A stretch of 64,000 bases of DNA from Gemmatimonadota bacterium (GTDB taxonomy: Bacteria > Gemmatimonadota > Gemmatimonadetes > Gemmatimonadales > GWC2-71-9). This document shows positions 3,083 through 63,016 of this stretch, in pieces (position 1 is the first letter of the stretch; the number at the start of each line of letters is the position of its first letter). The stretch covers positions 26,455-90,454 of the forward strand of contig JBDHJR010000006.1 of NCBI GenBank assembly GCA_039586815.1, given 5' to 3'. A program made the translations under genes and the position numbers. Under the pieces are notes generated by a model. It saw only the letters and a program-made list of their open reading frames with translations, did not search any database and was not told the origin of the DNA.

Positions 3083-4188
3083 GCCAGGCGCTCGCCCTCC
3101 CGCTGGGCGACCTCGACATGCTGAAGCGCCGCGTGGCGGCGCTGGCCGAGAAACGCCCCGGCGTTTACCGCATGCTCGATCCCGGCGGCCGCGTGGTGTA
3201 CGTGGGCAAGGCCAAGCAGCTGAGGGCCAGGCTGTTGTCGTACTTCCGCGCGAGCTATCCCGAGGAGAAGGCGGCCCGCATATTGCACGCGGCGGCCGAC
3301 ATCAGGTGGGACTACACTCCCTCGGAGTTTGCCGCGCTGCTCACCGAGCTCAACCAGATCCGCCGCTACCGGCCCGTGTTCAACGTTCGCATGAACCGCC
3401 GCAGACGCGTGGGGTTCATCAAGATCTCCGACGGTACGGCCCCCAAGATCTACGTGGGCGGGACCGTCGCGGGCGACGACGTGCGGCACTACGGCCCGTT
3501 CGTGGGCGTGGGACGGCTAAAGGAGAGCGTGAAGATCCTGAACGACCTGCTGGGACTGAGGGATTGCGCGCTGTCGATGCCGATGGTGTACTCCGACCAG
3601 CGGGACCTGTTCGCGGGACCGCAGCGTGCCGCGTGCATGCGACACGAGCTGGGTACGTGCACGGCGCCCTGCGCCGGGTTCGTGAGCGAGCCCGAGTACC
3701 GCAGCCGGGTGCACGCCGCGGCCGACTTCATCGAGGCGCGTGACACCGGTCCCCTGGAGCAGATCATCAGCAGCATGACGGCGGCGAGCGAGGCGCAGGA
3801 CTTCGAGCGCGCCGCGTGGTGCCGCGACAAGTTCGACGCCCTCACCTGGCTGCTGTCGGCCTGCACCAGGGCGCAGGCGGCCCTGGAGGCGCTGAGCTTC
3901 GTGTACACCGACCCGGGCGTCTATGGCGACGACCGCACCTACGTCATCAAGCGTGCGACCGTGCGCGCGGCTGCGCCGGCTCCGCACACTCCCATCGAGA
4001 TAGAGGCGTTCCGTTCGCTGGTCGCCGAGCACGCCGGCGGAGACCCCGAGCCGGGACCCATTCCCACGGCCGCGATCGACGAGACGCTGCTGCTGCTCTC
4101 CTGGTTCCGGCGTCACCCCGGCGCGCTGCGACGCACGGTCGGCCTGGAGGAGTGGCTGGAGCGGCACGCGGCGGAGTCGCACGCATGA
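3073..4188 (+). CDS. UvrC N-terminal-like (Cho-like) GIY-YIG endonuclease
   Basis: PGVYRM...VYVGKAKQLRARLLSYF, Cys-rich cluster, UVR-like FERAAWCRD; no RNase H or HhH C-terminal half. Confidence 0.85.
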   Translation: MAVSQALALPLGDLDMLKRRVAALAEKRPGVYRMLDPGGRVVYVGKAKQLRARLLSYFRASYPEEKAARILHAAADIRWDYTPSEFAALLTELNQIRRYRPVFNVRMNRRRRVGFIKISDGTAPKIYVGGTVAGDDVRHYGPFVGVGRLKESVKILNDLLGLRDCALSMPMVYSDQRDLFAGPQRAACMRHELGTCTAPCAGFVSEPEYRSRVHAAADFIEARDTGPLEQIISSMTAASEAQDFERAAWCRDKFDALTWLLSACTRAQAALEALSFVYTDPGVYGDDRTYVIKRATVRAAAPAPHTPIEIEAFRSLVAEHAGGDPEPGPIPTAAIDETLLLLSWFRRHPGALRRTVGLEEWLERHAAESHA

Positions 4189-5171
4189 TCCCGCAGGCCG
4201 GCCTGGCGATCATCGAGCTCGGCTTCGGGCTCGCAGTGCTGTTCTACGGCGGCAGCCTGCTGGTACGGGGCGCGACGGCCGTGGCGCTGCTGGCGCGCAT
4301 CTCCACCGCCGTCGTGGCCCTCACCGTGGTGGCGATGGGTACCAGCCTGCCGGAGCTGGCGGTGAGCGTGCGTGCGGCCTCGCGGCAGGCCACCGACATC
4401 GCCTACGGTAACATCATCGGCTCCAGCATATTCAACGTCGGGGCCATCCTGGGACTGGCCGCCGTCATGGTGGCAATCCACGTGCGCAAGCACACGCTCA
4501 AGGTCGAGTACTGGATAATGCTGGCGGCCACCGGGGCCGTGCTGTACTTCGCCTCCAACGGCAACGTGGGCCGCTGGGAGGGCGCTGCGCTCTGCCTCGG
4601 TCTCGTCCTCTTCGTGCTGTACACCATCTACCACGCCCGCCGTGACGTCACGGGGAGCGAGGCGGCCAGCCTGGAGCGCGAGGTCAAGCGCGCGGCGCAC
4701 CTGAAGGACGGTGCGGCGCGTGCCTGGGGACTCAACGTCACGCTCATCGTGCTGGGCCTGGTCCTGCTGGCGGGCGGAGCGGAGCTCTCCGTGCTGGGCG
4801 CCCTGACCGGTGCGCGCGTGCTGGGAGTGGAGGAACGGGTAATCGGCCTCACCGTGGTGGCCATGGGAACCAGCCTGCCGGAGCTCGCCACATGCGTGGC
4901 CGCAGCACGGCACAAGGAGCCGGACATCGCGCTGGGCAACGTGATCGGCTCCAACATCTTCAACCTGTTCGGCATCCTGGGAGTCACCGCCGCAGTGTTC
5001 CCGGTGCCGGTGCAGGGCACCTTCCTCACCGCGGACAACTGGGTACTGCTCGCGTTCACCGTGGTGCTGTTCCCCATCATGCTGACGCGCCGCATGGTCT
5101 CGCGCCGCGAGGGCGTAGTCCTGCTGGTGGGGTTCTCCGTCTACATCGCGTGGGTGGTGGTGGCGGGGTAG
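4185..5171 (+). CDS. Calcium/sodium antiporter (YrbG/CaCA family)
   Basis: Two GTSLPEL alpha-repeats, GNxIGS motifs, about 10 TM segments; ATGA overlap. Confidence 0.92.
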   Translation: MIPQAGLAIIELGFGLAVLFYGGSLLVRGATAVALLARISTAVVALTVVAMGTSLPELAVSVRAASRQATDIAYGNIIGSSIFNVGAILGLAAVMVAIHVRKHTLKVEYWIMLAATGAVLYFASNGNVGRWEGAALCLGLVLFVLYTIYHARRDVTGSEAASLEREVKRAAHLKDGAARAWGLNVTLIVLGLVLLAGGAELSVLGALTGARVLGVEERVIGLTVVAMGTSLPELATCVAAARHKEPDIALGNVIGSNIFNLFGILGVTAAVFPVPVQGTFLTADNWVLLAFTVVLFPIMLTRRMVSRREGVVLLVGFSVYIAWVVVAG

Positions 5172-5174
5172 CTA

Positions 5175-5648
5175 CTACAAATCCACCAACCTCGCCCGGG
5201 GCGGGATCCCGGGCTCCAGCTCCATGACCCCCACTGAGGGCCGCAGCCCGAAGCCTCTTGGTCCGGCCGACCCCGGGTTCATTACCGTCACCGTCTTGTT
5301 CACCAGCTCGAGCAGCGGCTTGTGCGTGTGACCGTATGCCAGGATCTCCGCGTGCGGAAAGGCGTCCACGAGCTTGTCGGGCGCCGGCGTGCCGAACTGG
5401 TCACCGTGGGTCACCACGACGATGAACCCGTCCAGCTCCACCTCGGCCACCTGCGGGCATTTGGCGCGCACGTCGAAGCCGTCGGTGTTGCCGTACACGG
5501 CGGTTACGGGCGCTAGCGCTTCCAGCTCGGTTAGCACGTCGAGCCGGCCGATGTCTCCCGCATGCAGGATGTGATCCACCTGCTCGAACACATCGAACAC
5601 TTCGGGGCGCAGGTGGTTGTGGGTATCCGAGATGACGCCGAGGCGCAC
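5175..5648 (-). CDS. YfcE/MJ0936-family metallophosphoesterase
   Basis: SDTH, HAGD, GNTD, GHTH, NPGS motifs. Confidence 0.92.
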   Translation of the reverse strand: MRLGVISDTHNHLRPEVFDVFEQVDHILHAGDIGRLDVLTELEALAPVTAVYGNTDGFDVRAKCPQVAEVELDGFIVVVTHGDQFGTPAPDKLVDAFPHAEILAYGHTHKPLLELVNKTVTVMNPGSAGPRGFGLRPSVGVMELEPGIPPRARLVDL

Positions 5649-5652
5649 GCGC

Positions 5653-6237
5653 TCACCCGTCCCAGCGGGGCACCAGCTCCGCGTCCACTCCCATGTGGTC
5701 CAGCACGCGCTGCACGATGAAGTCCACCAGGTCCTGTACCTGCTGCGGGCGGTGGTAGAAGCCCGGAGCGGCGGGGATGACCGTGGCTCCAGCCTCGGTC
5801 ACCGCGGTGAGGTTACGCAGGTGCACCAGGGAGAGCGGCGTTTCGCGCGGCACGAGAATCAGCGGTCGCCGCTCCTTGAGCGTCACGTCGGCGGCGCGCT
5901 CGACGAGCGAGCGGCTGTTGCCGCGCGCAATGGCCGACACGGTACCCATGGAGCAGGGACACACCACCATGCCCGCACTGCGGGCCGAACCCGACGCGGG
6001 CTTGGCGCCGCGGTCGGCATCGTCGTACACGGTGATGCTGGACCAGTCCCCGCCCGTCGCCTCGCGCAGCTCCTCCTCGGAACCGATCCCCGTCTCCGTT
6101 TGCAGCAGGCGCCAGCCATGGCCCGACACCACGAGCATGAGGGGCACCTGGTGCCGCGCTAGCACCTCCAGCAGGCGCACCGCGTAGGGGCCGCCCGAGG
6201 CACCCGTGATCGCGAGAGTCCAGGGAGCGGCGCTCAC
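5653..6237 (-). CDS. ubiX: Flavin prenyltransferase UbiX
   Basis: ITGASG, ASGS, PCSMGT, RAADVTLKERR, RETP, PGFY. Confidence 0.95.
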   Translation of the reverse strand: MSAAPWTLAITGASGGPYAVRLLEVLARHQVPLMLVVSGHGWRLLQTETGIGSEEELREATGGDWSSITVYDDADRGAKPASGSARSAGMVVCPCSMGTVSAIARGNSRSLVERAADVTLKERRPLILVPRETPLSLVHLRNLTAVTEAGATVIPAAPGFYHRPQQVQDLVDFIVQRVLDHMGVDAELVPRWDG

Positions 6238-6419
6238 TGGCCCCTCCGGTTGGGTGTTGGGACCTTGTGCGGATGGCGCGGCGGGCCAGGGGGTGCCGGG
6301 CCCTTCGGTCCCTTGGGAGGAACACCCTTCCCCGCTCCCGGCTTGCGCGAGGGAGCTCCTTGGCGGCGCCGCGGACGCCCACCAGGCTTACCATGTTGCC
6401 GTCCCCTATCCCCCGTCAT
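6234..6419 (-). CDS. Putative small basic Pro/Gly/Arg-rich protein (61 aa)
   Basis: Exactly fills the ubiA-ubiX gap with 4-nt overlaps at both ends; low complexity, no recognisable domain. Confidence 0.4.
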   Translation of the reverse strand: MTGDRGRQHGKPGGRPRRRQGAPSRKPGAGKGVPPKGPKGPAPPGPPRHPHKVPTPNRRGQ

Positions 6420-7315
6420 ATCAGCCTATCCCCCAGCGCAAATAGGAACACAACTATGCTCACGATCCCGTTCATCCGGAAGAAGGCCGCATCGAGGCGG
6501 CTCAAGTCACCGGGCTTCACCAGCTGATGCTCCCACGCGAGCAGCACGGCCGCCAGCGCAACACCTGCGTAGTACACCGTGCCGAACGGTGTGCCGAATC
6601 CGAACCCCACGAGGGCGGCGATCGTGACACCGTGAAACAGCTTGCCCAGCAGGATGGCCCTGCGCTCACCGAGCAGCACCACCGCGCTCTTGAGCCCGTG
6701 CTCCCGGTCGAACGACTCGTCGGGCAGCGCGTAGAAGATGTCGAACCCGCCCACCCAGGTGAGCACGGCTAGCGCGATCACCGGCAGCGTCCACCACGGC
6801 TCGCCCCATGCTCCCGTCACCGCTATGTAGCCCGCGCCGGGCGCGATGCCCAGTCCCATCCCGAGCCACAGATGGCTCAGCGACGTGATGCGCTTGGTGT
6901 AGCTGTAGAACAGGATCCACGCCAGCGCGAGGGGACTGAGCAGCAGGCACAGGCGGTTGAGCAGCGCCGCAGCCGCCACGAACACCGCGCACGCCACCAC
7001 GACCGACAGCACTGCCTGACCCAGCGTCAACCTGCCGGTGGGAAGCTCCCGATACCGGGTGCGGGGGTTGCGCGCATCGTAGTGCCGGTCCACTACCCGG
7101 TTGAAGCCCATCGCAGCGAACCGCGCCGCGGTGAACGCAACAAGCACGAGCACGAGCTGCCGCAGAGTGACCGGCGCAGCGAACGACGCGTACACGACAC
7201 CCAGGAATGCGAAGGGGAGCGCGAAGACGGTGTGGGGCAGCTTGACGAAGTTGACGTAGCGCAGCAGCAGCGACTCCCCCGCGAACGTCTGCCCTTCTGG
7301 TTGCTGCGTGGTCAC
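6416..7315 (-). CDS. ubiA: UbiA-family polyprenyltransferase (MqnP-like)
   Basis: KLPHTVFALPFA, NRVVDRHYDARNPRT, YSYTKR, GFDIFYA; multi-TM. Confidence 0.92.
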   Translation of the reverse strand: MTTQQPEGQTFAGESLLLRYVNFVKLPHTVFALPFAFLGVVYASFAAPVTLRQLVLVLVAFTAARFAAMGFNRVVDRHYDARNPRTRYRELPTGRLTLGQAVLSVVVACAVFVAAAALLNRLCLLLSPLALAWILFYSYTKRITSLSHLWLGMGLGIAPGAGYIAVTGAWGEPWWTLPVIALAVLTWVGGFDIFYALPDESFDREHGLKSAVVLLGERRAILLGKLFHGVTIAALVGFGFGTPFGTVYYAGVALAAVLLAWEHQLVKPGDLSRLDAAFFRMNGIVSIVVFLFALGDRLI

Positions 7316-8808
7316 TGGTGGCGCCGCGGCGTGAGCCTGATCCCTAGCTCACCCCACATGGCGTCGACCCTGGCCTTCGTCTCGTCGTCCATCTCGATGC
7401 GGTCGGGCCAGTCGCGGTCGAAACCCTCTTCCTTCCACTTGGTGGTGGCGTCGATCCCCATCTTCGAGCCGTAGGTGAACGCGCGCGACGCATGATCCAG
7501 CACGTCTATGGGACCCATGGTGAACCGAATGTCGCGCTCGGGATCGATGTGGTTCAGCGCCACCCACCACGCCTCCTCGGGATCCCGCACGTTCACGTCC
7601 TTGTCGAGCACCACGATCACCTTGGCCAGCGACATGAGCCCCATGCCCCACAGGGCGTTCATCACCTTGTACGCCTGGCCGGGATACTGCTTGTCAATGC
7701 TCACGAATACGAGGTTGTGGAAGATGCCGGCGGCCGGCATGTGGTAGTCCACGATCTCCGGCAGGTTCATTCGCAGCAGGGGGAGGAATATCCGCTCAGT
7801 CGCATGTCCCAGGTAGAAGTCTTCCATGGGCGGACGCCCGACGATGGTCGCGGGGTAGACCGGATCCCGCCGCATCGTCACCGCGGTCACGTGTACCGCG
7901 GGGTAGTCGTCGGCCAGAGAGTAGAACCCCGTGTGGTCGCCGAACGGCCCCTCCAGCACCAGCGGCTCCGCCGGATCGATCAACCCCTCGATCACGACGT
8001 CGGCCTCGGCCGGCACCAGGAGGTCGTTGGTCACCGCCTTGGCCAGCGCCACGGGCTTGCGACGCAGGAAGCCGGCGAAAATGTACTCGTCTATGTTGGG
8101 CGGCAGCGGAGCCGACGCGGAGTAGATCGAGGGCGGGTCACCGCCCAGTGCGATCGCTACCGGCATCTTCTCGCCACGCGCGGCCATGTCCCGCCAGTGA
8201 GCGGCACCCACCTTGTGTCGTTGCCAGTGCATGGCGAGCAGATCTCTCTCCAACACCTGCACCCGGTACATCCCCACGTTGCGCACGCCGGTCCTGGGAT
8301 CGCGGGTCACCACCTGCGGCAGCGTAATGTAGGGGCCGCCGTCGTCCGGCCAGCACGTGGTGATGGGCAGCCGGCCCAGGTCGACCTCGGCTCCCTGCAG
8401 CACTACCTGCTGGCACGACGGCTTGCCCGACACCGTGCGCGGCGGGTACTTGGCGATCTCGGCGAGCTTGGGGAGCATGGCGAGCTTCTCGCGCCAGCCC
8501 TCGGGCACCTTGAGCTTGATCAGCTCCTCGATGCGCCGCCCGATGTCGTCCAGGTCGTCCACGCCGAGTGCCATGCCCATCCGCTTCAGCGAGCCGAACA
8601 GGTTGATCCCCACGGGGACGTCCGACGCCTTGCCGTCGTCCAGCAGCGGCTGCTCGAACAGCAGGGCCGGTCCGCCGCCCGCGCTCTTCATGCAGCGGTC
8701 CGCGATCTCGGTGATCTCCAGCTTCACCGAAACCGGCCGCTTCACGCGCACCAGCTCGCCCGCGTGGTCCAACGCCGTGACGAACTCGCGCAGGCTGTCC
8801 ATCGTCAT
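7312..8808 (-). CDS. ubiD: UbiD-family decarboxylase (menaquinone, MqnL-like)
   Basis: NVGMYR, EGPFGDHTGFY, VLDHAS, GSKMGIDAT; start at MTMDSL overlaps the ubiE stop. Confidence 0.94.
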   Translation of the reverse strand: MTMDSLREFVTALDHAGELVRVKRPVSVKLEITEIADRCMKSAGGGPALLFEQPLLDDGKASDVPVGINLFGSLKRMGMALGVDDLDDIGRRIEELIKLKVPEGWREKLAMLPKLAEIAKYPPRTVSGKPSCQQVVLQGAEVDLGRLPITTCWPDDGGPYITLPQVVTRDPRTGVRNVGMYRVQVLERDLLAMHWQRHKVGAAHWRDMAARGEKMPVAIALGGDPPSIYSASAPLPPNIDEYIFAGFLRRKPVALAKAVTNDLLVPAEADVVIEGLIDPAEPLVLEGPFGDHTGFYSLADDYPAVHVTAVTMRRDPVYPATIVGRPPMEDFYLGHATERIFLPLLRMNLPEIVDYHMPAAGIFHNLVFVSIDKQYPGQAYKVMNALWGMGLMSLAKVIVVLDKDVNVRDPEEAWWVALNHIDPERDIRFTMGPIDVLDHASRAFTYGSKMGIDATTKWKEEGFDRDWPDRIEMDDETKARVDAMWGELGIRLTPRRHQ

Positions 8809-52356: not shown

Positions 52357-52710
52357 TCACGCCCTCCCGTAGCGGTCCTTCAGACGGACCACGTCGTCCA
52401 GCTCGGGGGTCGAGACCTCCAGCAGATCGGTGGACACGACGGCCTCCATCTGGTGCACCGTGCCCGGAGTGACGTGGTACGCTTCCCCCTCCTTCATGGG
52501 CCGCTCCACCAGCTCGTCCTCGCCCTTCTCCTGCACGCGAAACACGATCTCGCCCTTGAGCACGAAGATCGTCTCGTCCTTGCGCTCGTGATACTGGAGG
52601 CTCAGCAGGTGTCCCGGCTCGATGTGCAGGATCTTGCCGACGTAGCGATCGGTCTTCGCCCAGATCAGCTCGTGTCCCCAGGGCTTCTCCACCCGGTACG
52701 GCGTCTCCAC
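52357..52710 (-). CDS. Cupin (mannose-6-phosphate isomerase-like)
   Basis: VEKPWGHE, LSLQYH..KDET, PGTVH, EVSTPELDDVVRL. Confidence 0.88.
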   Translation of the reverse strand: METPYRVEKPWGHELIWAKTDRYVGKILHIEPGHLLSLQYHERKDETIFVLKGEIVFRVQEKGEDELVERPMKEGEAYHVTPGTVHQMEAVVSTDLLEVSTPELDDVVRLKDRYGRA

Positions 52711-52723
52711 AGCCGCTCCTTGC

Positions 52724-53332
52724 TCAGAAAGTGAGATGTAACTTCAACGACGACGGTGTGGTAACGCAGGCTCGCACGCAGACCCCACACCCCACACACC
52801 CCTCAGCATACAGCACCGGCCGCCCGGCGTCATCGAGTCCGATGGCCTCCTCTCCCAGCGGGCAAACCCTGGCGCACACCCCGCACTCCACGTCCTGGAA
52901 GGCGATGCACCGCTCCGGGACGAGCTCGAGGGTCGCCATGCGGTAGCCGTCCCATAGCTGCTCGGGCAGCTCGAGCGCGTCGGTGGGACATGCCTTGGCG
53001 CACAGCATCTCGTTGCACACGGTGCACGGCTGCACCGCCGGATCGATCATGGGGGTGCCCACTGCGAGACCGGCTCCGGGCGGCGCCGTCACGATGGCGT
53101 TGGCCGGGCAGACATCGATGCAATCGCCGCAGCGGGTGCACGCGGCGAGGAAGGCGACCTCATCCATGGCCCCCGGAGGTCGAAACACCGGGAGCGGAGC
53201 CACCCGACGCTCGGCCCGTCGCACAACCTCGTTCATGAGACGCCCAACGGTCTCGCGAAAGAAGGTGCGCCGGTCGCCTTCGCTGCCGGTCAGGAAGTCG
53301 GCGCCGAACTGGTCGTCACGCGGCGGTACCAT
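52724..53332 (-). CDS. NapF/NapG/MauM-type multi-[4Fe-4S] ferredoxin
   Basis: RPPGA plus four Cys cluster motifs. Confidence 0.85.
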   Translation of the reverse strand: MVPPRDDQFGADFLTGSEGDRRTFFRETVGRLMNEVVRRAERRVAPLPVFRPPGAMDEVAFLAACTRCGDCIDVCPANAIVTAPPGAGLAVGTPMIDPAVQPCTVCNEMLCAKACPTDALELPEQLWDGYRMATLELVPERCIAFQDVECGVCARVCPLGEEAIGLDDAGRPVLYAEGCVGCGVCVRACVTTPSSLKLHLTF

Positions 53333-53610
53333 GCGCCCTAAGGTATGAGCCCGCCCAGCAGGGCGGCAGGGCCCGATGTGAGCAAGCGCACAGCCACCGT
53401 CGTGGCACCGCAGGCACGTTGCCGTTGGTGGCGACACCCTCTCCATACGCCACCGACCCGACAGTGGCGGCAGGTGGCTTGAGAGGATGGTGTCATACGG
53501 AAATACCGGAGTCCGGGAGCGCCCGCCTGGCGCCGGAGCCCGACCCGGCCCTAGCGAAGCTCCCGCAGTGCCAATAACTTAGCTGCCCTTCAACCGACGG
53601 CATTGCGCCC

Positions 53611-55917
53611 ATGCGTCGGACAGGCGGAACGTGGCTGCACGTTCAGCAGCCCGCCCTCAACGTGCTGAGGGCGGGCCTCTTGCTCTCTTGCCTTCCGGTC
53701 GCCTTGGCCAGCTGCAGGCTCGATGACCTGGTTACGTCCCCTGGGGACCCCACGGTAGAGCTGCAGCTGTCCCGGACGATCGTGGGGGTGGCGGACTCTG
53801 CCCTGCTCACGGCCACGGTACTGGTCGATGGGGAAGCTCAGGACGGGGTGCCGCTGTCGTGGCGCACGGGCGACAGCGCCATCGCGACGGTGACGCCGGC
53901 GGGGCTGGCCCAGGGCCGCACAAGGGGCAAGGTGGTCGTCACGGCCCAGGTCCAGGGGGGCGCCGTCTCCAGCATGGATGTGGCAGCCTCCGACACACTC
54001 TGGGTGGTCGCCGCCACGCTGGCCCTGACGCCTGCGGACACCACGCTCACCAGTGCGGGCGACACGCTGTGCCTCGAGTACGAGATTCGCGATGCCGGTG
54101 GAACAGCGCTCACGGGAGGGGCTCCGAGCTTCGCATTGATGGAAGACCCCGATTCGACCGTGTCGCTCACCCAATCGGGCGCCTGTGTGGTGGCCCGGGG
54201 GAGCGGGCGGGAAGCCATGGTTCAGGCGACCGTGGACACGGCGACCGCCAGCGCGACGATCAGCGTGCTGCAGACCATCACGGCGCTCGAGATCGAGCCG
54301 GATAGCGTGGAGCTGCTGAGCCTCGGTGCCACGGAGCAGCTCACGGCCGAAGCCACCGACCGCCGCGGCAACGCCGCGCCGGCCACCTTCGTCACCTGGA
54401 CGTCGAGCGACACCAACGTGGCCGTGGTGGACTCCGCGGGGGAGGTGACCGCTCGCGGTGCCGGCGAAGCGCTCGTGTACGGGGCGTCGGACGGACTGAG
54501 CGACAGCACGGTGGTGAGCGTGACACCGCCCGAGCTGAGCGTCGCCCCCACCTCGGTGAGCGCCTCGGCGAAGGTGGGAAGCACCGCGTTGCACACGGCA
54601 GACCTCACGATAGACAACGCGGGCACCGGCTCGCCTCCCTGGTCGGGTACCAAGTCCAGCGGTTGGCTGAGCATGTCCAGGACAGGCGGTGGAATGCCCG
54701 ACAACGTACAGCTCAGCCTCGACCCGGCTGGGCTCGCCGAGGGTACTCACCACGACACGGTCGTCATCACGGTGTCCGGTGCGAGCGGCAGCCCGGCGGA
54801 GATTCCGGTGACCTTCGAGCTTCTGCCCTGCAGCGTGACGGGCATCGCGCCGGACGTCACGCTGGGTGGCGTCCTCTCGACCGGCGACTGCGGGGCGCCG
54901 CACCGAGCCGGCAGCTTCGCCCGGGTCTACTCGATCACGGGAGGGTGGGGAGATACGGTCTCGCTACGCCTCGACGGTGACTTCGACGCATATCTGCTGG
55001 TGCTCGACGGAAGCGGCACGGTACTGGCCGAGAACGACGAATGTGCAGGCAACCCCGTGCGCGGGCCGGCCTGCATTGAGGAGTTCGCCCTGCCGACGGC
55101 CGGCACCTACCGGATAGAGGCCACGAGCTTCGACGCGGCAGCAACCGGCAACTTCTCACTGCGCGCCACAATCCCGACGGCACCCGATGCACCGCAGGTG
55201 CTGGGCCAGTTCCGCAGCGACGGGATCACCCCGATCTCCCTGGGCGCGGCGACCGGCCAGACGACCGTGGTCTTCGAGGCCACGCTGAGCGACAGTGATC
55301 CCGCGGACAGCCTCCGGCTCGAGGTCGAGGTCCAGCCGCTGGGCGGGGCATTCACCGGCACGCCTACCGCCACGAGCGCGGTCACGACCAGCGGGAGCAG
55401 CGCCACGGTATCGGTCTCGGGCCTGGCAGACAACGCGAGCTTTCACTGGCAGGCCCGCGCCGTGGACCAAACCGGTCGCGCCGGACCCTGGACGTCGTAC
55501 GGCGGCAACGGAGAAGGAGAAGCCGACTTCCACGTCGACGTCGCTCCCCAGGATCCCATCACGCCGGCCAACGCCGGCCAGTTCAAGGTCGGCGGAGCAC
55601 CCATCGACACGAGCGGGACCACCGACGAAGCCACCGTGATCTTCCAGGCGTTGCTCACCGACCCCGACCCGGCCGACTCCCTGCGGCTCGAGGTTGAGGT
55701 GCAGCCGGTGGGCACCGCGTTCACCAACTCGCCCACCGCCACGGGCGCCAGCGTCGCCCGGGGCACTCTGGGGCAGGTGGCCGTACCCGGACTGCTCGAC
55801 AACACCGACTACCACTGGCAGGTGCGCGCCCGCGACCGCACGGGCCGCTTCAGCCTGTGGATCAGCTTCGGCGGCAATCCCGAGACCGCGGTGGACTTCC
55901 GCGTGGAGATTCCCTGA
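53611..55917 (+). CDS. Large lipoprotein with Ig-like (Big_2), BACON-like, PPC-like and two FN3-like domains
   Basis: LASC lipobox; W..SD..VA.V...G.V Big_2 motifs; DFDAYLLVLD...ENDE PPC motif; C-terminal tandem repeat; start uncertain. Confidence 0.8.
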   Translation: MRRTGGTWLHVQQPALNVLRAGLLLSCLPVALASCRLDDLVTSPGDPTVELQLSRTIVGVADSALLTATVLVDGEAQDGVPLSWRTGDSAIATVTPAGLAQGRTRGKVVVTAQVQGGAVSSMDVAASDTLWVVAATLALTPADTTLTSAGDTLCLEYEIRDAGGTALTGGAPSFALMEDPDSTVSLTQSGACVVARGSGREAMVQATVDTATASATISVLQTITALEIEPDSVELLSLGATEQLTAEATDRRGNAAPATFVTWTSSDTNVAVVDSAGEVTARGAGEALVYGASDGLSDSTVVSVTPPELSVAPTSVSASAKVGSTALHTADLTIDNAGTGSPPWSGTKSSGWLSMSRTGGGMPDNVQLSLDPAGLAEGTHHDTVVITVSGASGSPAEIPVTFELLPCSVTGIAPDVTLGGVLSTGDCGAPHRAGSFARVYSITGGWGDTVSLRLDGDFDAYLLVLDGSGTVLAENDECAGNPVRGPACIEEFALPTAGTYRIEATSFDAAATGNFSLRATIPTAPDAPQVLGQFRSDGITPISLGAATGQTTVVFEATLSDSDPADSLRLEVEVQPLGGAFTGTPTATSAVTTSGSSATVSVSGLADNASFHWQARAVDQTGRAGPWTSYGGNGEGEADFHVDVAPQDPITPANAGQFKVGGAPIDTSGTTDEATVIFQALLTDPDPADSLRLEVEVQPVGTAFTNSPTATGASVARGTLGQVAVPGLLDNTDYHWQVRARDRTGRFSLWISFGGNPETAVDFRVEIP
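55174..55914 (+). repeat. Intragenic tandem duplication of an approximately 123-aa domain
   Basis: Both copies contain GQF, DPADSLRLEVEVQP, PTAT, GL.DN..[FY]HWQ.RA.D.TGR...W.S[YF]GGN.E...DF. Confidence 0.9.
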
Positions 55918-57455
55918 TGCCCGACGCGCCCAAGAAGCAGCGCCGCTGGACGAGAGAGGGCGCTACTCTCTGCCCCACCTGCCGCACGGGGGAGATCCTG
56001 CCGCACTCCATGGAGTGCAACCACTGTCACCAGCCGATGACGAGAGCCGAGCCTCCCGAGCCGCCGGCGGCAGAGGAAGTCGAGCGCAACGTACGCAGGC
56101 ACCTCGGCGCCAACTACCAGCTCGACGGTCTGTTGGGTCGGGGCGGCATGTCACTCGTCTATCTGGCGCGGGAGAAGGAGCTGCACCGGCCCGTCGCCCT
56201 CAAGGTTCTGCCCCTCCAGCTCGTGCTGGGAACAGCCGCCGCCGAGCGCTTCAGCCGTGAGGCGAAGATCGCGGCCTCGCTCGACCAGCACCACATCGTC
56301 CCGATCTACCGCGTCGGGACCACGTCCAGCTTCCTGTGGTACACGATGAAGTACGTGAAGGGACGCTCCCTCGCGGAAGTGCTTGAGAGCCATGGCACGC
56401 TCGAGCTGGACGCGACGCTCGACATCATGGCACAGGTAGCCAGCGCGCTACACTACGCGCACCGCCGCGGCATCGTGCACCGCGACATCAAGCCCGAGAA
56501 CGTGCTGATCGATGAGGACGGCTGGGTGTGGGTGTGCGACTTCGGCGTGGCCAAGGCGTTCGGCGCGATCCCGCTCACCAACACCGGCACCACGCTCGGC
56601 ACGCCGAGCTACATGTCGCCCGAGCAGTGCTACGGCCAGAGCGTAGATGGACGCTCGGACCAGTACTCGCTGGCGGCGCTCACCTATCGCTGTCTCGCAG
56701 GGCAGACGCCCTTCGTCGCGAACTCGCTGGGACTCATGATCCGCAAGCAGTGCCTCGAGTCTCCCAGGGAGCTGATCGAGTTGCGATCGGACCTGCCGCC
56801 CCGAGTCTCGAGCGCGGTGCGCCGCGCGCTGAACAAGAAGCCGGAAGACCGCTACCCTGACATCGTGCAGTTCATCGAGGCGCTGGGCGGGCGCGTCTCC
56901 GTGCGGACCACGAATCCGTCGCTGCAGGAACTCACGCAGCCGACCCCGCTCCCGGCCGATTCGCCGCCACGCGAGCCGCCGCGGCGCTGGCGCAGGCCGC
57001 GCGCGCGCCTGGTTGCGGCGTTCGTCGCACCGCTGGCCGTGGCCGGAGTCGTGCTGTGGCCTTACCCGGATACGGTGCGGCAGGAAGCGCCGGGCAGCGG
57101 GGACGGACCACCGGTGGCCGCGGAATCGCCACTGACCCTCACGGACGCGGGTGAGCCGACTCGGGACGAGCCGGCCCCGCAGCAGAGCCCCCGGCAGCGC
57201 TCCGCCGATCGGGCGACGCCGGCGGCGGCAAACGAGCCGGCGCGCCTCTGGGTCCAGTCGGAGCAGTGGGGCTACGTGTACCTCGACGGGCGCCAGCTCC
57301 AGATGACGCCCGTCCTCGACTTCCCGATTCCCGCCGGCACCCACACGGTGCGCATCGTGCGCGACGGCTTCGAGCCGTTCGAGCAGGTGATAGTGGCCGA
57401 GCCGGGGCAGTCGATTCGTCTCACTGGAATCGCCCTGCGGGAGCAGCAGCCGTAA
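55917..57455 (+). CDS. Hanks-type Ser/Thr kinase 1 (Zn ribbon-kinase-TM-PEGA)
   Basis: CPTC/CNHC, GRGGMS, VALK, HRDIKPEN, DFG, YMSPE, one TM, PEGA-like C-terminus; TGATG coupling. Confidence 0.93.
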   Translation: MPDAPKKQRRWTREGATLCPTCRTGEILPHSMECNHCHQPMTRAEPPEPPAAEEVERNVRRHLGANYQLDGLLGRGGMSLVYLAREKELHRPVALKVLPLQLVLGTAAAERFSREAKIAASLDQHHIVPIYRVGTTSSFLWYTMKYVKGRSLAEVLESHGTLELDATLDIMAQVASALHYAHRRGIVHRDIKPENVLIDEDGWVWVCDFGVAKAFGAIPLTNTGTTLGTPSYMSPEQCYGQSVDGRSDQYSLAALTYRCLAGQTPFVANSLGLMIRKQCLESPRELIELRSDLPPRVSSAVRRALNKKPEDRYPDIVQFIEALGGRVSVRTTNPSLQELTQPTPLPADSPPREPPRRWRRPRARLVAAFVAPLAVAGVVLWPYPDTVRQEAPGSGDGPPVAAESPLTLTDAGEPTRDEPAPQQSPRQRSADRATPAAANEPARLWVQSEQWGYVYLDGRQLQMTPVLDFPIPAGTHTVRIVRDGFEPFEQVIVAEPGQSIRLTGIALREQQP

Positions 57456-58508
57456 GTGCCACACCGCGCAATCGTCTGCCTGGCACTCGTACTTGCAGTC
57501 GCCGCTCCGAGTGCCCGCGGGCAGACCGCCACCGAGCAGCTGCAGTACGGCATAGAGGCGTATCGCAACCTGGAGCTGGAGGCGGCAGTCGGCTTCCTGC
57601 GCCGCGCCCTAGCAGCGGCCCCTGAGGGTGGGCTCTCCACCAGCGAGCGCACCAGCGCGCTGAGTTACCTGGGCGCAGCCGAGTTCTTCAGCGGCAGGCG
57701 CGACTCAGCCTCAGCCGCCTTCCGCCGCCTGGTCACCCTCGAGCCGCGCCACCGGCCGGACTCCGTGGTCTTCCCCCCGCAGGTGCTTCAGCTGTACGAC
57801 GACGTGCGGCGCGGCACGCGAGTGGTCACGGCCGTCGCCCCGGCCGACACGGCGATCGTGCTGGGGCGCGACACCTTCACAGTACAATTGTACGCCGCCA
57901 CCTACCACTGGATTCGCGCACAGCTAATCCGCGACGACGGCTCCATAATGCGTCCGCTGTACGACGGCGAGGTGGGCGACAGCCTGTTGCTGCACTGGGA
58001 CGGGCTGGACGACTCCGGCGCCCCGGCGGCGGGGCGCTACACCCTGCTGGTCGAGTCGCTGGCGCCGAGCGGCGGTGTCGAGCGCATCGTGCACTTCCCG
58101 GTCGAGGTGGAGGTGGTGCGCCTCGACACGGTGCCGCACCCGCCGCCGCCTCCCGACTCGCTGCTCCTGCCCGAGCGGCAGCCGGCCGGCCCGGCGTTGC
58201 GCAGCCTCACCGCGGGCCTGGCCCTGGGCGGCCTTGCGATCGCCCTTCCCTCGCTGGCGGGCTCGAGCGCCGAAGCCTCCGACGCGCGCTTCGCGGTGGG
58301 CGGAGCGATCACGCTGGCGGGGGTGATCGGGTTCTTCAAACAGAAGCCGGGCCGTGCGCTCCCCGACAACATCACCGCCAACCAGCATTTGATTAGCCAG
58401 TGGCGCGATCGGCGCGACACGGTGGTGCGGGAGAACGACGCGCGACGCGACGCGCGTCTGCGGATCCGGACCGGCCCCACCGTGCGAGAGGATCTCGAGA
58501 GGCCATGA
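57456..58508 (+). CDS. Secreted TPR-like/FlgD-Ig-like protein 1
   Basis: Signal peptide, TPR-like helices, FPP motif, WDGLDDSG..GRY, hydrophobic hairpin. Confidence 0.78.
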   Translation: MPHRAIVCLALVLAVAAPSARGQTATEQLQYGIEAYRNLELEAAVGFLRRALAAAPEGGLSTSERTSALSYLGAAEFFSGRRDSASAAFRRLVTLEPRHRPDSVVFPPQVLQLYDDVRRGTRVVTAVAPADTAIVLGRDTFTVQLYAATYHWIRAQLIRDDGSIMRPLYDGEVGDSLLLHWDGLDDSGAPAAGRYTLLVESLAPSGGVERIVHFPVEVEVVRLDTVPHPPPPPDSLLLPERQPAGPALRSLTAGLALGGLAIALPSLAGSSAEASDARFAVGGAITLAGVIGFFKQKPGRALPDNITANQHLISQWRDRRDTVVRENDARRDARLRIRTGPTVREDLERP

Positions 58509-59143
58509 GGCGCACCCTGCTCGTGCTGCTGTCGCTCGCGCCCGCCGGGTTGCAGGCCCAGGCGCCGCTCCGCTTCGCGGCGGGGGCCACGGCCATGCAG
58601 TACCGGGTGCACAGCGAGCTGAACGGCGAGACCGAGTCCCTGAGCGCGCCCGGCTTCGGCATCGAGGGCCTCGTCTCGTCGGGGCGGGTAGCACTCGAGG
58701 GACGCTACGTGCAGGCCGACCTCGACCCCAACACCGCCGGAGCGCTCGCCCGTGACGCGGCCGAGGGACACCTGCTCCTGGCCGTGCGAGCGACTCCCTG
58801 GCTCACCCTGGCGACCGGTCCGCTGTCGCGCAGCTATGAGACCACCCTGGGGAGCCAGCGCTGGGTGCTGTGGACCGTGCGCGCACGGGGAGCGCCGGTC
58901 CTGGTGCCCAACCTGGTGCGCGGCTACGCCGAGCTGTGGGGCGCCCTACCGCTCGACTTGAGCGTACCCGAGAGCTGGAACAGCGGCTGGGGCGGCGACG
59001 TGGGGCTGACGCTGGCGTTGCCGCGCCTCCCGGTGTGGCTCCGTCTCGGCTACCGCTTCGAGCAGTATCGGCTGGGCGACGGAACTCGACGCGAGACGAT
59101 CGACGGCGCCACGCTGAGCCTCGGGGCCGGACGGCTCTGGTAG
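58505..59143 (+). CDS. Small outer-membrane beta-barrel protein
   Basis: Signal peptide (LQA-Q), amphipathic strands, LRLGYRFE, terminal aromatic W; ATGA overlap. Confidence 0.7.
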   Translation: MRRTLLVLLSLAPAGLQAQAPLRFAAGATAMQYRVHSELNGETESLSAPGFGIEGLVSSGRVALEGRYVQADLDPNTAGALARDAAEGHLLLAVRATPWLTLATGPLSRSYETTLGSQRWVLWTVRARGAPVLVPNLVRGYAELWGALPLDLSVPESWNSGWGGDVGLTLALPRLPVWLRLGYRFEQYRLGDGTRRETIDGATLSLGAGRLW

Positions 59144-59263
59144 CCGTCCGCGCCTCGGCGACCCCTCCGATCCTTCCCGCCCGGTCTCACGGCATGCTGG
59201 CGCCGAATGCTGCAGATTTGTAAATAGAATCGATGTGCAGCGGCGGAGCGTAGTGATACTGAC

Positions 59264-60706
59264 GTGAGCCACCCGCGATTGATCTGCCCCAAGTGCGGCG
59301 CGGCCGAAATCCTCGAGGACACGGGGACGTGTCCTGCGTGCGGCTACTCGGCCGCACACGACAGCACCGACTCCGAGGGCATTCCTCCCGTCATGGAGGC
59401 CGGCATCCGGCGGGAGCTGGAGCACGAGTTCCGCATCGAGCGCGTGCTGGGCCGCGGGGGGATGTCCGTCGTGTACCTGGCGCGCGAGCTGGACCTCAAC
59501 CGCCTCGTCGCCATCAAGGTGCTCCCCCTCCAGTTGCAGATGGGTCCGGACGCCGCCGACCGATTCAAGCGCGAAGCCAAGATCGCGGCCTCCCTCGACC
59601 ACCCCCACATCGTGCCGATTCACCGGGTCGGGACCACCGCAACCTTCATGTGGTACTCGATGAAGTGGGTGAAGGGCCGCTCCCTGCGGGACGTCATCAA
59701 GGAAACGGGGCCGATGAACCTGGACGACGTGCTCCGGATCATCGAGCCCGTGGCCGGGGCCCTGGACCACGCACACCGTCGCGGCATCGTGCACCGGGAC
59801 GTGAAGCCGGAAAACGTGCTGATCGACGAGGTCGGCTGGGTCACGGTGTGCGACTTCGGCATCGCCAAGGCGTTCGGCTCGGTACCGCTCACGCAGACGG
59901 GGGGCACGCTGGGAACGCCGGCGTACATGTCCACAGAACAGTGCTACGGCCAGGCGCTGGACGGCCGCTCGGACCAGTATTCGCTGGCGGTGCTCACCTA
60001 CGAGTCACTGGCGGGTGTGCTTCCGTTCCAGTCGGACTCGTTGGGCGACATCGTGCGGCAGCACTGCATGGAGCCCCCGCCGCGCATCACGGCGGTGCGA
60101 GCGGACCTGCCCGAGTCGGTATCGCACGCGATCCTCACCGCCATGAGCAAGCAGCCCAACGATCGCTTCGAGAGCGTGCTCGACTTCGTGCAGGCCCTGG
60201 GCGCTCCGCCGGCGCGCGCCACGCCCAGCTTCGCCACGGTGCCGACGCAGGAAAGTCTCGCCACCGCTCCGACGGAGCCGGTGAGCACGCCCACCGCCCG
60301 CTTCGCCAAGCGCTACGGCCCCGCCATGTTCGGTGCGGCGCTGATGCTGGCGGTGTTCATCACGGTGCTGGTAACCCGCCCCGACAGAGCCGTGCAGGAG
60401 AACACGCCTGCGGCCCCCGCCTTGGGGGCAACTGCGGAGTCCACGGTGACACGGGACACGGCGCTACTCGAGCCCGGACCGCAGTCTGGGGTCCTCTTCG
60501 TGGCTTCGAACCCCTGGGGGCACGTGTACGTGGACGGCGAGCGGGTGGGCGAGACGCCGCTTGCCAGCTACCCCCTGGAGCCGGGTCGCCACGAGCTGAG
60601 CGTCGAGCGTGAGGGCTTCGAGCCCTTCCGCCAAGTGCTCGAGGTGACGGCTGGCCAGGAGGTCCGCTTGACCGGGATCGTGTTGAACAGACGGAACGCG
60701 CCGTGA
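59264..60706 (+). CDS. Hanks-type Ser/Thr kinase 2 (Zn ribbon-kinase-TM-PEGA)
   Basis: CPKC/CPAC, GRGGMS, VAIK, HRDVKPEN, DFG, YMSTE, TM, PEGA-like C-terminus. Confidence 0.93.
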   Translation: MSHPRLICPKCGAAEILEDTGTCPACGYSAAHDSTDSEGIPPVMEAGIRRELEHEFRIERVLGRGGMSVVYLARELDLNRLVAIKVLPLQLQMGPDAADRFKREAKIAASLDHPHIVPIHRVGTTATFMWYSMKWVKGRSLRDVIKETGPMNLDDVLRIIEPVAGALDHAHRRGIVHRDVKPENVLIDEVGWVTVCDFGIAKAFGSVPLTQTGGTLGTPAYMSTEQCYGQALDGRSDQYSLAVLTYESLAGVLPFQSDSLGDIVRQHCMEPPPRITAVRADLPESVSHAILTAMSKQPNDRFESVLDFVQALGAPPARATPSFATVPTQESLATAPTEPVSTPTARFAKRYGPAMFGAALMLAVFITVLVTRPDRAVQENTPAAPALGATAESTVTRDTALLEPGPQSGVLFVASNPWGHVYVDGERVGETPLASYPLEPGRHELSVEREGFEPFRQVLEVTAGQEVRLTGIVLNRRNAP

Positions 60707-61755
60707 CGCAGGCCATCAGGGTCCCCCTGTGGCTGACGGTCGGGTTCGTGCTGCTCGCGGCTCCGGCGGCGGCGCAGACGCCTGCGGCGCTGCTGACCGA
60801 GGGAGTCTCCGCATACAACGACCTCGAGTTCGCGCTCGCCGCCCGCATCCTGAGACGGGCCGTCGCGAGCGAGGCAGAGCCCGCGCTGTCGCAGGCCCAG
60901 TTGGAGCGGGCCCTGGTGTACCTCGGCGCGAGCGAGGTGCTGTTGGACGAGCGCAACCGGGCGGTCGAGACGTTCCGCGCGCTCGTACTCGCCAACCCGC
61001 GTTACCGCGCCGACGATCTGGTGTTCCCACCGCGCGTGACGCGTGTGTTCGGCGAGGTGCTCGAGACGACGAAGGCAACGGACGTGGAGGCGCCGCGGCG
61101 CATGGTGCTGGTGACGCGCACCGAGCGCATCGGGTTCCAGGTCTTTCCCACGTCGGAACAGCGCATCCGGGCGACCGTAGTCACCAACGAAGGCGCTACG
61201 GTCCGCGTGCTGTTCGACGGCGTCATCGAGGGGCCCCGCACAGTGACGTGGAACGGACTGGACGGGCGCGGCCGAATCCCGCCGCCCGGCAATTACCGGC
61301 TGGTGGTTGCGTCGATGGTGACCGAGGGCGCCGCTCTGCGCTCCATACAGATGCCGATCACGCTCGAGGCCGCTCCCCTCTCTACGGTCGATGTCCCAAG
61401 GCCCCCACCCGACTCGCTGCTCAAACCCGAGAAGCGGTCGGCGGTGCCGGGGCTGAGCATCCTCATTCCGAGTGCCATAGTGGGCGCCGCACTGATCATC
61501 CCGGCGCTGGACGGCGACTCCGAGAACAGCGGGGTACGCATTGCCGTGGGCGGCGCAGTGACCATCGGGGGGATCGTAGGATTCATACTCATGAAGCCGG
61601 GCGCTCCGCTGCCCGACAACGTCGCCCACAACGATTCCCTGAGGAGCGACTGGAATCGCCGCACCACGGATGCGGAACGGGAGAATCAGCGACGCCAGGG
61701 CATCACGCGCTACATCGTCTATACCGGACAACCGTACAGGGTAGAAGGCGGGTAG
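60703..61755 (+). CDS. Secreted TPR-like/FlgD-Ig-like protein 2 (paralog of 57456-58508)
   Basis: Same motifs: YLGA, VFPP, WNGLDGRG..GNY, PPPDSLL.PE, KPG..LPDN. Confidence 0.78.
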   Translation: MTQAIRVPLWLTVGFVLLAAPAAAQTPAALLTEGVSAYNDLEFALAARILRRAVASEAEPALSQAQLERALVYLGASEVLLDERNRAVETFRALVLANPRYRADDLVFPPRVTRVFGEVLETTKATDVEAPRRMVLVTRTERIGFQVFPTSEQRIRATVVTNEGATVRVLFDGVIEGPRTVTWNGLDGRGRIPPPGNYRLVVASMVTEGAALRSIQMPITLEAAPLSTVDVPRPPPDSLLKPEKRSAVPGLSILIPSAIVGAALIIPALDGDSENSGVRIAVGGAVTIGGIVGFILMKPGAPLPDNVAHNDSLRSDWNRRTTDAERENQRRQGITRYIVYTGQPYRVEGG

Positions 61756-61771
61756 CCCCCCGGGACTCCGA

Positions 61772-62725
61772 GTGAGCACGTCGTTCCGTCCCGCCTACCT
61801 CGGACTCAGCCACAGCGAGCTCAGGGAACGATCCGAGCGCGCCGTAGCCTCTCTCTCAGACTGCCGCGCCTGCCCGCGTGACTGCGGGGTCAACCGCCTC
61901 GAAAACAAGTGGGCGGCGTGCAAGACCGGACGCTACGCGGTGATCAGCTCCGCGTTCCCCCACTTCGGAGAAGAGGACTGCCTGCGCGGGCGCAACGGCT
62001 CGGGCACGATCTTCTTCTCGCACTGCAACCTGCGCTGCGTGTTCTGCCAGAACTTCGACATCAGCCAGGCCGTGCGCCCGGGGCCAGCGGCGCCGGGCAC
62101 TCCACCCGAGGAGATCGCGGCGGTCATGCTGGCACTGCAGAACCAGGGGTGCCACAACATCAACTTCGTGACACCGGAGCATGTGGTGCCGCAAGTGATC
62201 GAAGCCCTGGTGCCGGCGATCGAACAGGGACTCCGCCTGCCGATCGTGTACAACACGAGCGCGTACGATTCGCTCGAGAGCCTGGAGCTGATGGACGGCA
62301 TCGTGGACGTCTACATGCCGGACTTCAAGTACTGGTCGGTGGACCGGGCACACACCTACCTGATGGCTGAGGACTACCCCGACGCCGCACGCGCCGCGCT
62401 AAAGGAGATGCACCGACAAGTGGGCGACCTGGTGCTCGACGCCGACGGGATCGCGCAGCGGGGAATCCTGCTGAGACACCTCGTCATGCCGGGGCAGCTC
62501 GACGAGACACGCGCGATACTCGAGTGGGTCGCCACCGAGCTGAGCCGCGGCACCTATGTGAACGTGATGGACCAGTACCGGCCGGCCGGCAAGGTGCACG
62601 CTGCCTGGTTCGAGGAAATCAACCGCCGTGTCACGCCCGCTGAGCTGCGCGAGGCATACGAGATAGCCCGAGAGGTAGGACTCACCCGCCTCGACGAGCG
62701 GAGCGCGCAGGGCAAGCTGCAGTAA
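61772..62725 (+). CDS. PflX-type radical SAM protein
   Basis: CRACPRDC, HFGEE, CNLRCVFCQN, HNINFVTP, YMPDFKY, RHLVMP. Confidence 0.9.
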   Translation: MSTSFRPAYLGLSHSELRERSERAVASLSDCRACPRDCGVNRLENKWAACKTGRYAVISSAFPHFGEEDCLRGRNGSGTIFFSHCNLRCVFCQNFDISQAVRPGPAAPGTPPEEIAAVMLALQNQGCHNINFVTPEHVVPQVIEALVPAIEQGLRLPIVYNTSAYDSLESLELMDGIVDVYMPDFKYWSVDRAHTYLMAEDYPDAARAALKEMHRQVGDLVLDADGIAQRGILLRHLVMPGQLDETRAILEWVATELSRGTYVNVMDQYRPAGKVHAAWFEEINRRVTPAELREAYEIAREVGLTRLDERSAQGKLQ

Positions 62726-63016
62726 TCAGAGCTTCAGCAGTGCCACCATGATCCCTACGACGGTCACCGTATGCCCGGCCCAGAACACAAACATCCAGCG
62801 GGTGATCCTGGCCTCGAAAGCGCGCGTCTCCGCCTTCACCTCGACGAAGAGCTGGTCGAGCTTGGCATCGAACCGCGCGAAGTTGAGCTCGTTGAGCTCT
62901 CTCAACTCCGACCGATACGCCGAGTCTACCTGATTGACCCAATTCACGAGCTCGTCGGCGACCTCATGGCCTAGCCTCTGGTAGAACGCTTTGGAGAACT
63001 TCGCCGTGACGGGCAT
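62726..63016 (-). CDS. Short coiled-coil protein with C-terminal membrane anchor (DUF1640/CCDC90-like)
   Basis: Helical head, heptad stalk, RWMFVFW then TM. Confidence 0.7.
   Translation of the reverse strand: MPVTAKFSKAFYQRLGHEVADELVNWVNQVDSAYRSELRELNELNFARFDAKLDQLFVEVKAETRAFEARITRWMFVFWAGHTVTVVGIMVALLKL

Follow-up and report, generated by a model that had tools for sequence, protein, structure and literature searches.

What joins six consecutive genes that pair Hanks-type Ser/Thr kinases with exported proteins of the cell envelope? The genes in question occupy positions 53611-61755 of a 64,000-nucleotide (nt) stretch of DNA from a Gemmatimonadota bacterium (the whole stretch is called the window here; its G+C content is ~68%, and the names of homologs and the records of close relatives place it in Gemmatimonadales). 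An earlier reading of this DNA, the original prediction, had proposed six co-oriented genes encoding a signaling relay across the envelope: a lipoprotein rich in immunoglobulin-like (Ig) domains, two pairs of a kinase and an exported partner, and a small beta-barrel. We find all six open reading frames (ORFs) on the plus strand. The first four belong to a cassette of lipoprotein (L), kinase (K), adaptor (P), and barrel (B) whose arrangement is conserved far beyond chance and which, among the genomes searched, is limited to the window's own class of Gemmatimonadota. The region as a whole consists of one such four-gene cassette and one K-P pair that lacks a barrel. Our results confirm and strengthen the observation of the six-gene set and partly support its interpretation as an envelope relay.

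A conserved four-gene cassette

The cassette of the window comprises L (53611..55917, 768 amino acids [aa]), its variable member; K1 (55917..57455, 512 aa from the ATG); P1 (57456..58508, 350 aa); and B (58505..59143, 212 aa). These four genes had been described as tightly coupled, and their junctions can be read directly from the sequence: the L stop codon (55915-55917) and the K1 ATG at 55917 share the sequence TGATG, P1 opens with a GTG immediately after the K1 TAA, and P1 and B overlap in an ATGA. The start of K1 is corrected here to 55917, not 55914; K1 residues below are numbered on the 513-aa translation of 55914-57455, so that each number exceeds its ATG-based counterpart by one. The second pair, K2 (59264..60706, 480 aa) and P2 (60703..61755, 350 aa), is joined by a GTGA overlap. 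Its members share the architectures of K1 and P1, and no barrel gene follows P2.

Of 201 genomes of the phylum, 72 were matched by a profile built from 17 adaptors. Adaptor matches with a best E value of at most 1e-20 were present in 52 of the 200 other genomes (45 of the same family, 6 of the same order, and 1 of the same class); these tallies include three unpublished genomes (G181, G156, and G057). Genomes of other families gave partial matches only (E ~1e-6), which, among the rows listed, cover ~35 to 80 profile positions, mostly in the Ig part. For gene neighborhoods we turned to 88 loci of other genomes, which together carry 89 of the matches listed. Partial matches do not enter this sample, nor do those in the three unpublished genomes or one that is truncated where its contig begins. 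Iterated hidden Markov models run on six-frame ORFs, with the window and a second contig of the same genome (C56) included, identified 92 adaptors (89 from other genomes and 3 from the window's own), 97 kinases, and 85 barrels.

A kinase lies directly upstream of 86 of the 92 adaptors, and a barrel lies directly downstream of 85 of the 90 that have room for one. Both are present at 79/92, which bears out the expectation that adaptor homologs would be enriched beside PEGA kinases and barrels. Five adaptors, P2 among them, have a kinase without a barrel, and two have a kinase and no downstream room. Kinase-adaptor fusions of the "Rosetta stone" kind were found in none of the 92; long open frames in the profile search that could have been read as fusions are frame overlaps instead. 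Because the genes past the barrel and before the lipoprotein are variable and often sit on the opposite strand, we take L-K-P-B to be the unit. The window's own genome carries a second full cassette of this kind on C56, with a 541-aa lipoprotein, a Zn-ribbon/kinase/transmembrane (TM)/PEGA protein, the third adaptor paralog, and a 208-aa barrel, in that order.

A scan for relatives with single proteins returned six close loci. Three from metagenome-assembled genomes (L125, L127, and L128; P1 58-80% identical) have the order kinase-adaptor-barrel-kinase-adaptor, along with a conserved lipoprotein C terminus. At a fourth such locus (L126) the order P1-B-K2-P2 was recovered; the K1 row is absent there from a search that reported one match per query. 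The adaptor family comprises 464 clusters at 50% identity (E ≤1e-30). Homologs carry only the database names "hypothetical protein," "TPR repeat protein," or "FlgD Ig-like domain," and the Atlas returned only Gemmatimonadota clusters, all of them named "hypothetical protein."

Architecture of the kinases and adaptors

The architectures originally assigned to the genes agree with Pfam and NCBIfam matches and with structure models. K1 is composed of a Zn ribbon (CxxC...CxxC), a Hanks kinase domain (Pfam Pkinase, PF00069; E = 3e-46, 158.2 bits, cut-off 31.7), one TM helix, a Pro-rich linker, and a PEGA domain (PF08308; E = 1e-7, 31.7 bits, cut-off 20.8). K2, which is 47% identical to K1, has the same layout (Pkinase, E = 1e-42, 146.6 bits; PEGA after the TM helix, E = 4e-15, 55.8 bits), with weak Zn-ribbon matches in Pfam and NCBIfam. 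The CxxC...CxxC motif is present in both proteins, and its Cys columns are at least 90% conserved across 50 family kinases. The catalytic motifs are intact in K1 (ALKVL, HRDIKPEN, DFG) as well as in K2 (AIKVL, HRDVKPEN, DFG). A Pro in the PEGA motif, present in 68/72 relatives, is Gln in K1. Within the family, canonical catalytic motifs are found in 40/44 kinases of clades B, C, and D; in clade A, to which the window's kinases belong, canonical K, HRD, N, and DFG are found in only 7/28 kinases, K1 and K2 included.

The two adaptors are 39% identical. A model of P1 from a 70-row alignment (mean predicted local distance difference test [pLDDT] score 90) contains a signal-peptide helix, five TPR-like helices (residues 25-120), and an Ig sandwich (124-222). 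Its C-terminal part is made up of two hydrophobic helices (245-268 and 275-296), a basic helix (303-329), and a beta-hairpin. No Pfam TPR family matches above its cut-off, the best for P1 being TPR_2 (20.4 bits vs. a cut-off of 27). Foldseek matched the TPR module of P1 to the peptide-binding TPR domain of prolyl 4-hydroxylase (P4H; 9hre, TM-score 0.71 on the target), and a search of the adaptor family profile against Protein Data Bank (PDB) sequences found consensus TPR chains and the P4H domain at E = 1e-4. The Ig part resembles FlgD Ig-like domains both by Foldseek (3c12 and 3osv, E = 3e-4) and in the profile search against PDB (E = 1.7e-6, adaptor profile positions ~128-216). Full FlgD is not matched (PF13860, 16.9 bits vs. 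a cut-off of 27 for P2; NCBIfam FlgD, 21.8 vs. 230). We rejected a flagellar role via FlgD: the Ig fold alone is held in common, and the neighbors are kinase and barrel genes, with no flagellar gene nearby.

The P1 signal peptide ends in A-Q, and a Gln follows the signal-peptide Ala in 85/92 adaptors (residue 23, 57522-57524 in P1). The corresponding Gln is at least 90% conserved in the barrels (residue 19, 58559-58561 in B). This "Q-rule" habit is described as specific to Bacteroidetes and not common to the whole Fibrobacteres-Chlorobi-Bacteroidetes (FCB) group (PMC5837995).

A predicted contact between the TPR module and PEGA

According to the original prediction, each TPR partner binds the PEGA domain of its own kinase. 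Modeling of the K1-P1 pair supports contact between a TPR module and PEGA. A complex of K1 (residues 355-513) with P1 (residues 24-350), modeled from a separate alignment for each protein, received a score of 0.75 (0.74, 0.75, and 0.75 in separate runs), and the best of three controls scored 0.00. The mark set for this score is reached by 58/80 solved complexes and 2/110 mismatched pairs, counts that hold only roughly here because our own alignments were used. Contact agreement in the complex runs was at least 39%, and partner pLDDT was at least 80. The modeled interface brings PEGA residues 446-453, 464-468, and 502-505 against adaptor residues 37-41, 78, and 104-109.

Adaptor residues linked to this interface are conserved to differing degrees in the 92 adaptors: Y36 in 76, L39 in 79, D102 in 84, F106 in 54, and P108 in 86. 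Four adaptors that occur without a kinase and form one clade have Arg at position 39, a predicted PEGA contact. Mutual information with average product correction, computed for the 25 best contact pairs, has a mean of 0.047 against a background of 0.000 (sd 0.073), a level equaled by 11 of 10,000 random sets, and adaptor positions P106/P107 paired with kinase position K452 fall in the top 1%.

Other PEGA kinases extend the association. Five are encoded in the window's own genome, where Pkinase matches number 61. Downstream of the fourth, on contig C44, lies a gene for a 564-aa protein that has the same TPR module at its N terminus (hhalign, 94.8%, 108 columns), fused in this case to a Trypsin_2 domain; beside the fifth, on C62, there is no partner with a TPR module. 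Among 20 further loci with the TPR module only, a PEGA kinase lies directly upstream in 7. We regard contact between the adaptor TPR module and PEGA as supported at the level of a structure prediction. By that prediction, docking of a TPR module would be the first candidate role for PEGA in kinases, through an interface that the model makes concrete and mutable. The module is tied to two partner architectures, one with Ig and membrane helices and the other with a trypsin-like protease.

The C44 variant (locus L123, G000:C44:5000-17000, positions 740-7784, minus strand) encodes a Zn-ribbon/kinase/TM/2xPEGA protein, the 564-aa protein, and a 1158-aa RCC1-repeat lipoprotein, and all three genes are tightly coupled.

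The barrel and the lipoprotein

B has the features of an outer-membrane beta-barrel, namely a signal peptide (ending in AQ), a closed, even-stranded barrel in its model, and an aromatic C-terminal residue, a W in this protein and an F in many of the relatives listed. The model, from 54 rows, has a pLDDT of 92.8 and ten long strands. Its best Foldseek match is OpcA (2vdf, E = 7e-6), and the other top matches are likewise outer-membrane barrels. No Pfam or NCBIfam family matched B, and no solved sequence relative was found; the nine homologs recovered are all nameless or named "hypothetical protein."

L has a signal peptide, an LASC lipobox, and a Big_2 domain (Pfam, E = 4e-7). Sub-threshold matches point to BACON_2-like and PPC-like domains and two fn3-like domains at the C terminus. 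The protein varies between close relatives: in three of them the alignment is confined to residues 514-768 (48-50% identity, compared with 74-82% for K1), and one more aligns over residues 294-768 with 79% identity. Varied proteins fill the lipoprotein position at other loci. They include lipoproteins of the C56 type (530-590 aa, with Big-like and PPC domains), Big_1/invasin arrays longer than 1470 aa, proteins with BACON_2/PPC domains or a beta-helix, and a PD40 propeller lipoprotein.

Several further observations concern this position. The N-terminal two thirds of L (53611-55150) have no alignment in close relatives (loci L125, L127, and L130), and many contigs of other genomes stop just upstream of the kinase, within or beside repeat-rich Ig-protein genes. 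These observations suggest that the L gene turns over fast or varies among strains. Lipoproteins of the C56 type have a recurring C-x-x-P-T-(D/E) sequence and further acidic residues right after the lipobox Cys (e.g., L005:4291-5916, L086, L088-L091, L099, L106, and L115); we speculate that this motif may be a sorting signal. Variants of the cassette that lack a kinase occur at L041 (second copy), L055, L060, and L067, and also at L038 and L046. Scans of the lipoprotein before the adaptor in L041, L060, and L067 place it in the BACON_2/PPC or BACON_2/BACON type.

Co-divergence of the cassette members and origin of the second pair

FastTree phylogenies of P, K, and B were compared through correlations of patristic distances, with 500 shuffles as the reference. 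The correlations are 0.83 for P-K (n = 72), 0.94 for P-B (n = 85), and 0.82 for K-B (n = 65), against a shuffle maximum of 0.16. The three trees are congruent. Species history alone fails to explain this co-divergence, because several paralogous clades coexist within single genomes.

The trees also speak to the second pair of the window. L085 is the nearest relative of K2 as well as of P2, L081 is close by, and the pairs at both loci are barrel-less. This agrees with the earlier suggestion that kinase and partner were duplicated as a unit. We reject a recent tandem copying of K1-P1, since K2 and P2 group with L085 and L081; judging from these phylogenies, K2-P2 is an old, separate, and barrel-less sub-lineage.

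What the cassette may do

We propose that the cassette is probably a form of accessory-protein-coupled envelope kinase signaling, linking a lipoprotein and a barrel to a membrane kinase and reporting the state of the envelope. The kinase would cross the inner membrane, its PEGA domain facing the periplasm and its Zn ribbon and catalytic domain facing the cytoplasm. The adaptor, once exported, would be anchored in the inner membrane through the hydrophobic helices of its C-terminal part and would clasp PEGA with its TPR module at the predicted contact. Because P and B co-evolve most tightly of all pairs, we infer that the adaptor and the ten-stranded barrel make the link to the outer membrane. 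The lipoprotein, with its variable Ig, BACON, PPC, beta-helix, or propeller modules, would be the exchangeable member that binds a ligand or sits at the surface. A change in the lipoprotein or at the outer membrane would then alter the grip of the adaptor on PEGA, and with it kinase clustering and activity, leading to the phosphorylation of cytoplasmic targets. That the cassette builds a complex spanning the envelope, from which outer changes reach the cytoplasm via the kinase, is a tentative proposal that we judge almost as likely to be right as wrong.

A bolder version likens the cassette to a receptor kinase with its co-receptor. The kinase or pseudokinase would be built into an envelope-spanning complex that allows a surface ligand to be read in the cytoplasm, its PEGA ectodomain held by an adaptor that is tied in turn to a dedicated barrel and to an exchangeable, fast-evolving surface lipoprotein. 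We consider this conceivable and rather doubtful. If it is true, decay of the kinase to a pseudokinase with the cassette kept would mirror the pseudokinases among eukaryotic receptors.

Several results weigh against a relay that runs through the kinase. The catalytic Asp is absent (HGN, HGG, or HGA) in 14/28 clade A kinases. Those without it have degenerate glycine loops, yet the kinase-adaptor-barrel order is kept (e.g., L042, L044, L052, L059, and L061); with the Asp lost and the loops degenerate, they are probable pseudokinases. A further 6 of the 92 adaptors have a barrel and no kinase, and here a lipoprotein gene directly precedes the adaptor. Because many relatives carry dead kinases or none, the kinase is an optional part of the cassette and not its indispensable core. 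The same two counts imply a role of the adaptor, barrel, and lipoprotein that needs no phosphorylation, and on the sequence evidence this part seems primary. The topology of the adaptor raises a separate difficulty. Positive charge peaks in the segment past its second hydrophobic helix (K+R 2.75 vs. D+E 1.01), and the loop between the helices is slightly acidic (K+R 1.09 vs. D+E 1.59), a charge pattern that would be a better fit to a cytoplasmic tail than to a hairpin with both ends in the periplasm. As for the PEGA contact, it comes from a model, and mutual information lends it modest support only, because the contact pairs share columns and the 72 rows are related. No kinase is adjacent at 13 of the 20 loci with the TPR module only, 2 of which have no room for one. 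Finally, no gene for a substrate, a phosphatase, or an FHA protein is adjacent to the cassette.

Much of this evidence would also be expected if the adaptor and barrel formed a structural or export core that places, anchors, or displays the lipoprotein, with the kinase as an optional, PEGA-docked regulatory or scaffold subunit. Slam-type TPR-plus-barrel helpers and RcsF-OmpA lipoprotein-barrel complexes would be the models for such a core. The P-B correlation of 0.94, highest of the three, the barrel that follows 85/90 adaptors with room, the kinase-less L-P-B variants (6/92), and the Asp-less clade A kinases (14/28) all agree with this idea. So does the replacement of L39 by Arg in one kinase-less clade of four, which fits loss of a docking site after loss of the kinase, and so does a lipoprotein position that is always filled, with very different adhesin-like folds. 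However, a barrel of ten strands is narrow for the passage of a protein, and we saw no match to DUF560 or to another export family. K2-P2 and the pairs at L081 and L085 have neither an adjoining barrel gene, opposite-strand neighbors included, nor a lipoprotein-class gene upstream. Moreover, the kinase gene is kept in 86/92 cassettes, and in clades B, C, and D its motifs are canonical in 40/44 cases. We rate a structural or export core as possible and on the whole unlikely.

The acidic loop and basic tail are better accommodated if only the second hydrophobic helix of the adaptor spans the membrane, so that the conserved basic tail meets the kinase domain. In that case the adaptor would be mainly a regulator or substrate of the kinase, acting in the inner membrane and cytoplasm, and the barrel and lipoprotein would merely be co-expressed envelope proteins. 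Conservation within the tail is in keeping with this proposal: N309 is invariant in both adaptor alignments, N305 and N327 are found in at least 90% of rows, and N327 is invariant in the 17-row alignment. The K-P pairs without a barrel (5/92) agree with it as well. On the other hand, the confident interface of the complex model, PEGA-TPR, lies on the periplasmic side, the tail consensus has no conserved Ser or Thr, and co-divergence with the adaptor is tighter for the barrel than for the kinase. We think this arrangement improbable.

Anti-phage defense, in which the surface lipoprotein and barrel would report phage attack to a PD-T4-6-like Ser/Thr kinase, is very improbable and was set aside. 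PD-T4-6 models of PADLOC do match both kinases (K1 at up to E = 5e-85, K2 at up to 5e-89), but over the kinase domain only, and comparable Pkinase matches number 61 in the genome. None of the PADLOC models matches the adaptor, barrel, or lipoprotein, and PD-T4-6 is a single-gene system.

Envelope kinase signaling remains our preferred account, and the cassette offers a conserved and abundant test case for it; 52 of the 200 other genomes carry it at full length, often in several copies. To understand one recurrent kinase module would aid in reading a kinase-rich and almost unstudied phylum.

Genomic context

The small, 3.1-Mb genome of the window has 61 Pkinase matches, a very high density of Hanks-type kinases, along with 9 FHA and 4 PP2C matches. 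It had been noted that no FHA protein or PP2C phosphatase is encoded in the window. None lies beside the six genes, and the nearest FHA match is on the same contig, outside the window.

Between the cassette and the K2-P2 pair lies a spacer of 120 nt (59144..59263) with an AT-rich stretch, set in a region of ~70% G+C. Its AT-richness suggests that it may carry a separate or internal promoter for K2-P2; a scan for consensus promoters returned none, spacer included. A scan for consensus terminators found a single terminator-like site, on the minus strand, and an Rfam scan of 52500-63000 matched no family. A radical SAM gene (61772-62725, plus strand) starts 17 nt past P2.

Comparison with known systems

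In Slam, a helper for the export of surface lipoproteins, a TPR domain and a 14-stranded DUF560 barrel form one protein. The cassette resembles it in having genes for a TPR module and a barrel next to a lipoprotein gene. Unlike in Slam, the TPR protein and the barrel are separate genes, the barrel is predicted to have 10 strands, and no DUF560 match appeared in Pfam at E ≤0.1. The Rcs relay (RcsF-OmpA/BamA-IgaA-RcsCD) is assembled from the same cast of parts, with a lipoprotein, an outer-membrane barrel, an inner-membrane protein with a periplasmic domain, and a kinase; no relation in sequence or fold would be expected, and the Rcs genes do not form one operon.

Histidine kinases under the control of accessory proteins offer a second likeness. 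In QseG-QseE (PMC6075780, PMC12691602) and CpxP-CpxA (PMC4160245), the activity of an inner-membrane kinase is reported to be set by a periplasmic protein or an outer-membrane lipoprotein that binds to its sensor domain, and in several cases the accessory gene sits beside that of the kinase. The two differ from the cassette in being two-component histidine kinases with response regulators, whereas the kinase here is of the Hanks type and is accompanied by a dedicated barrel.

For most membrane Hanks kinases of Gram-negative bacteria, no extracytoplasmic input is known. An exception is PpkA of the H1 type VI secretion system (T6SS) of Pseudomonas aeruginosa: in the TagQ/TagR(/TagST)-PpkA threonine phosphorylation pathway, a lipoprotein and a periplasmic protein are reported to engage the kinase, as a complex, after membrane damage, and TagQ/TagR are thought to dimerize PpkA in response to that damage (PMC13713981). 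The statement in the original prediction that no characterized system has this composition holds for the parts of the cassette, and a literature search that did not cover supplements turned up no description of it; it does not hold for function, since TagQ/TagR-PpkA is a published functional analogue (PMC13713981).

The differences in composition are clear. The periplasmic domain of the kinase here is PEGA, with no vWA or other PpkA-type Pfam match. The partner is, according to its model, a membrane-anchored TPR-Ig protein, the cassette includes an outer-membrane barrel, and no Fha, PppA, or T6SS genes are adjacent, unlike at the TagQRST-PpkA locus. Beyond the kinase domain we saw no homology to TagQ/TagR-PpkA, QseG-QseE, or CpxP-CpxA, although no search was aimed at TagQ or TagR. 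TagQ/TagR-PpkA is the nearest functional analogue of the cassette: a membrane Hanks kinase is controlled there, and would be controlled here, by an extracytoplasmic lipoprotein and a periplasmic partner.

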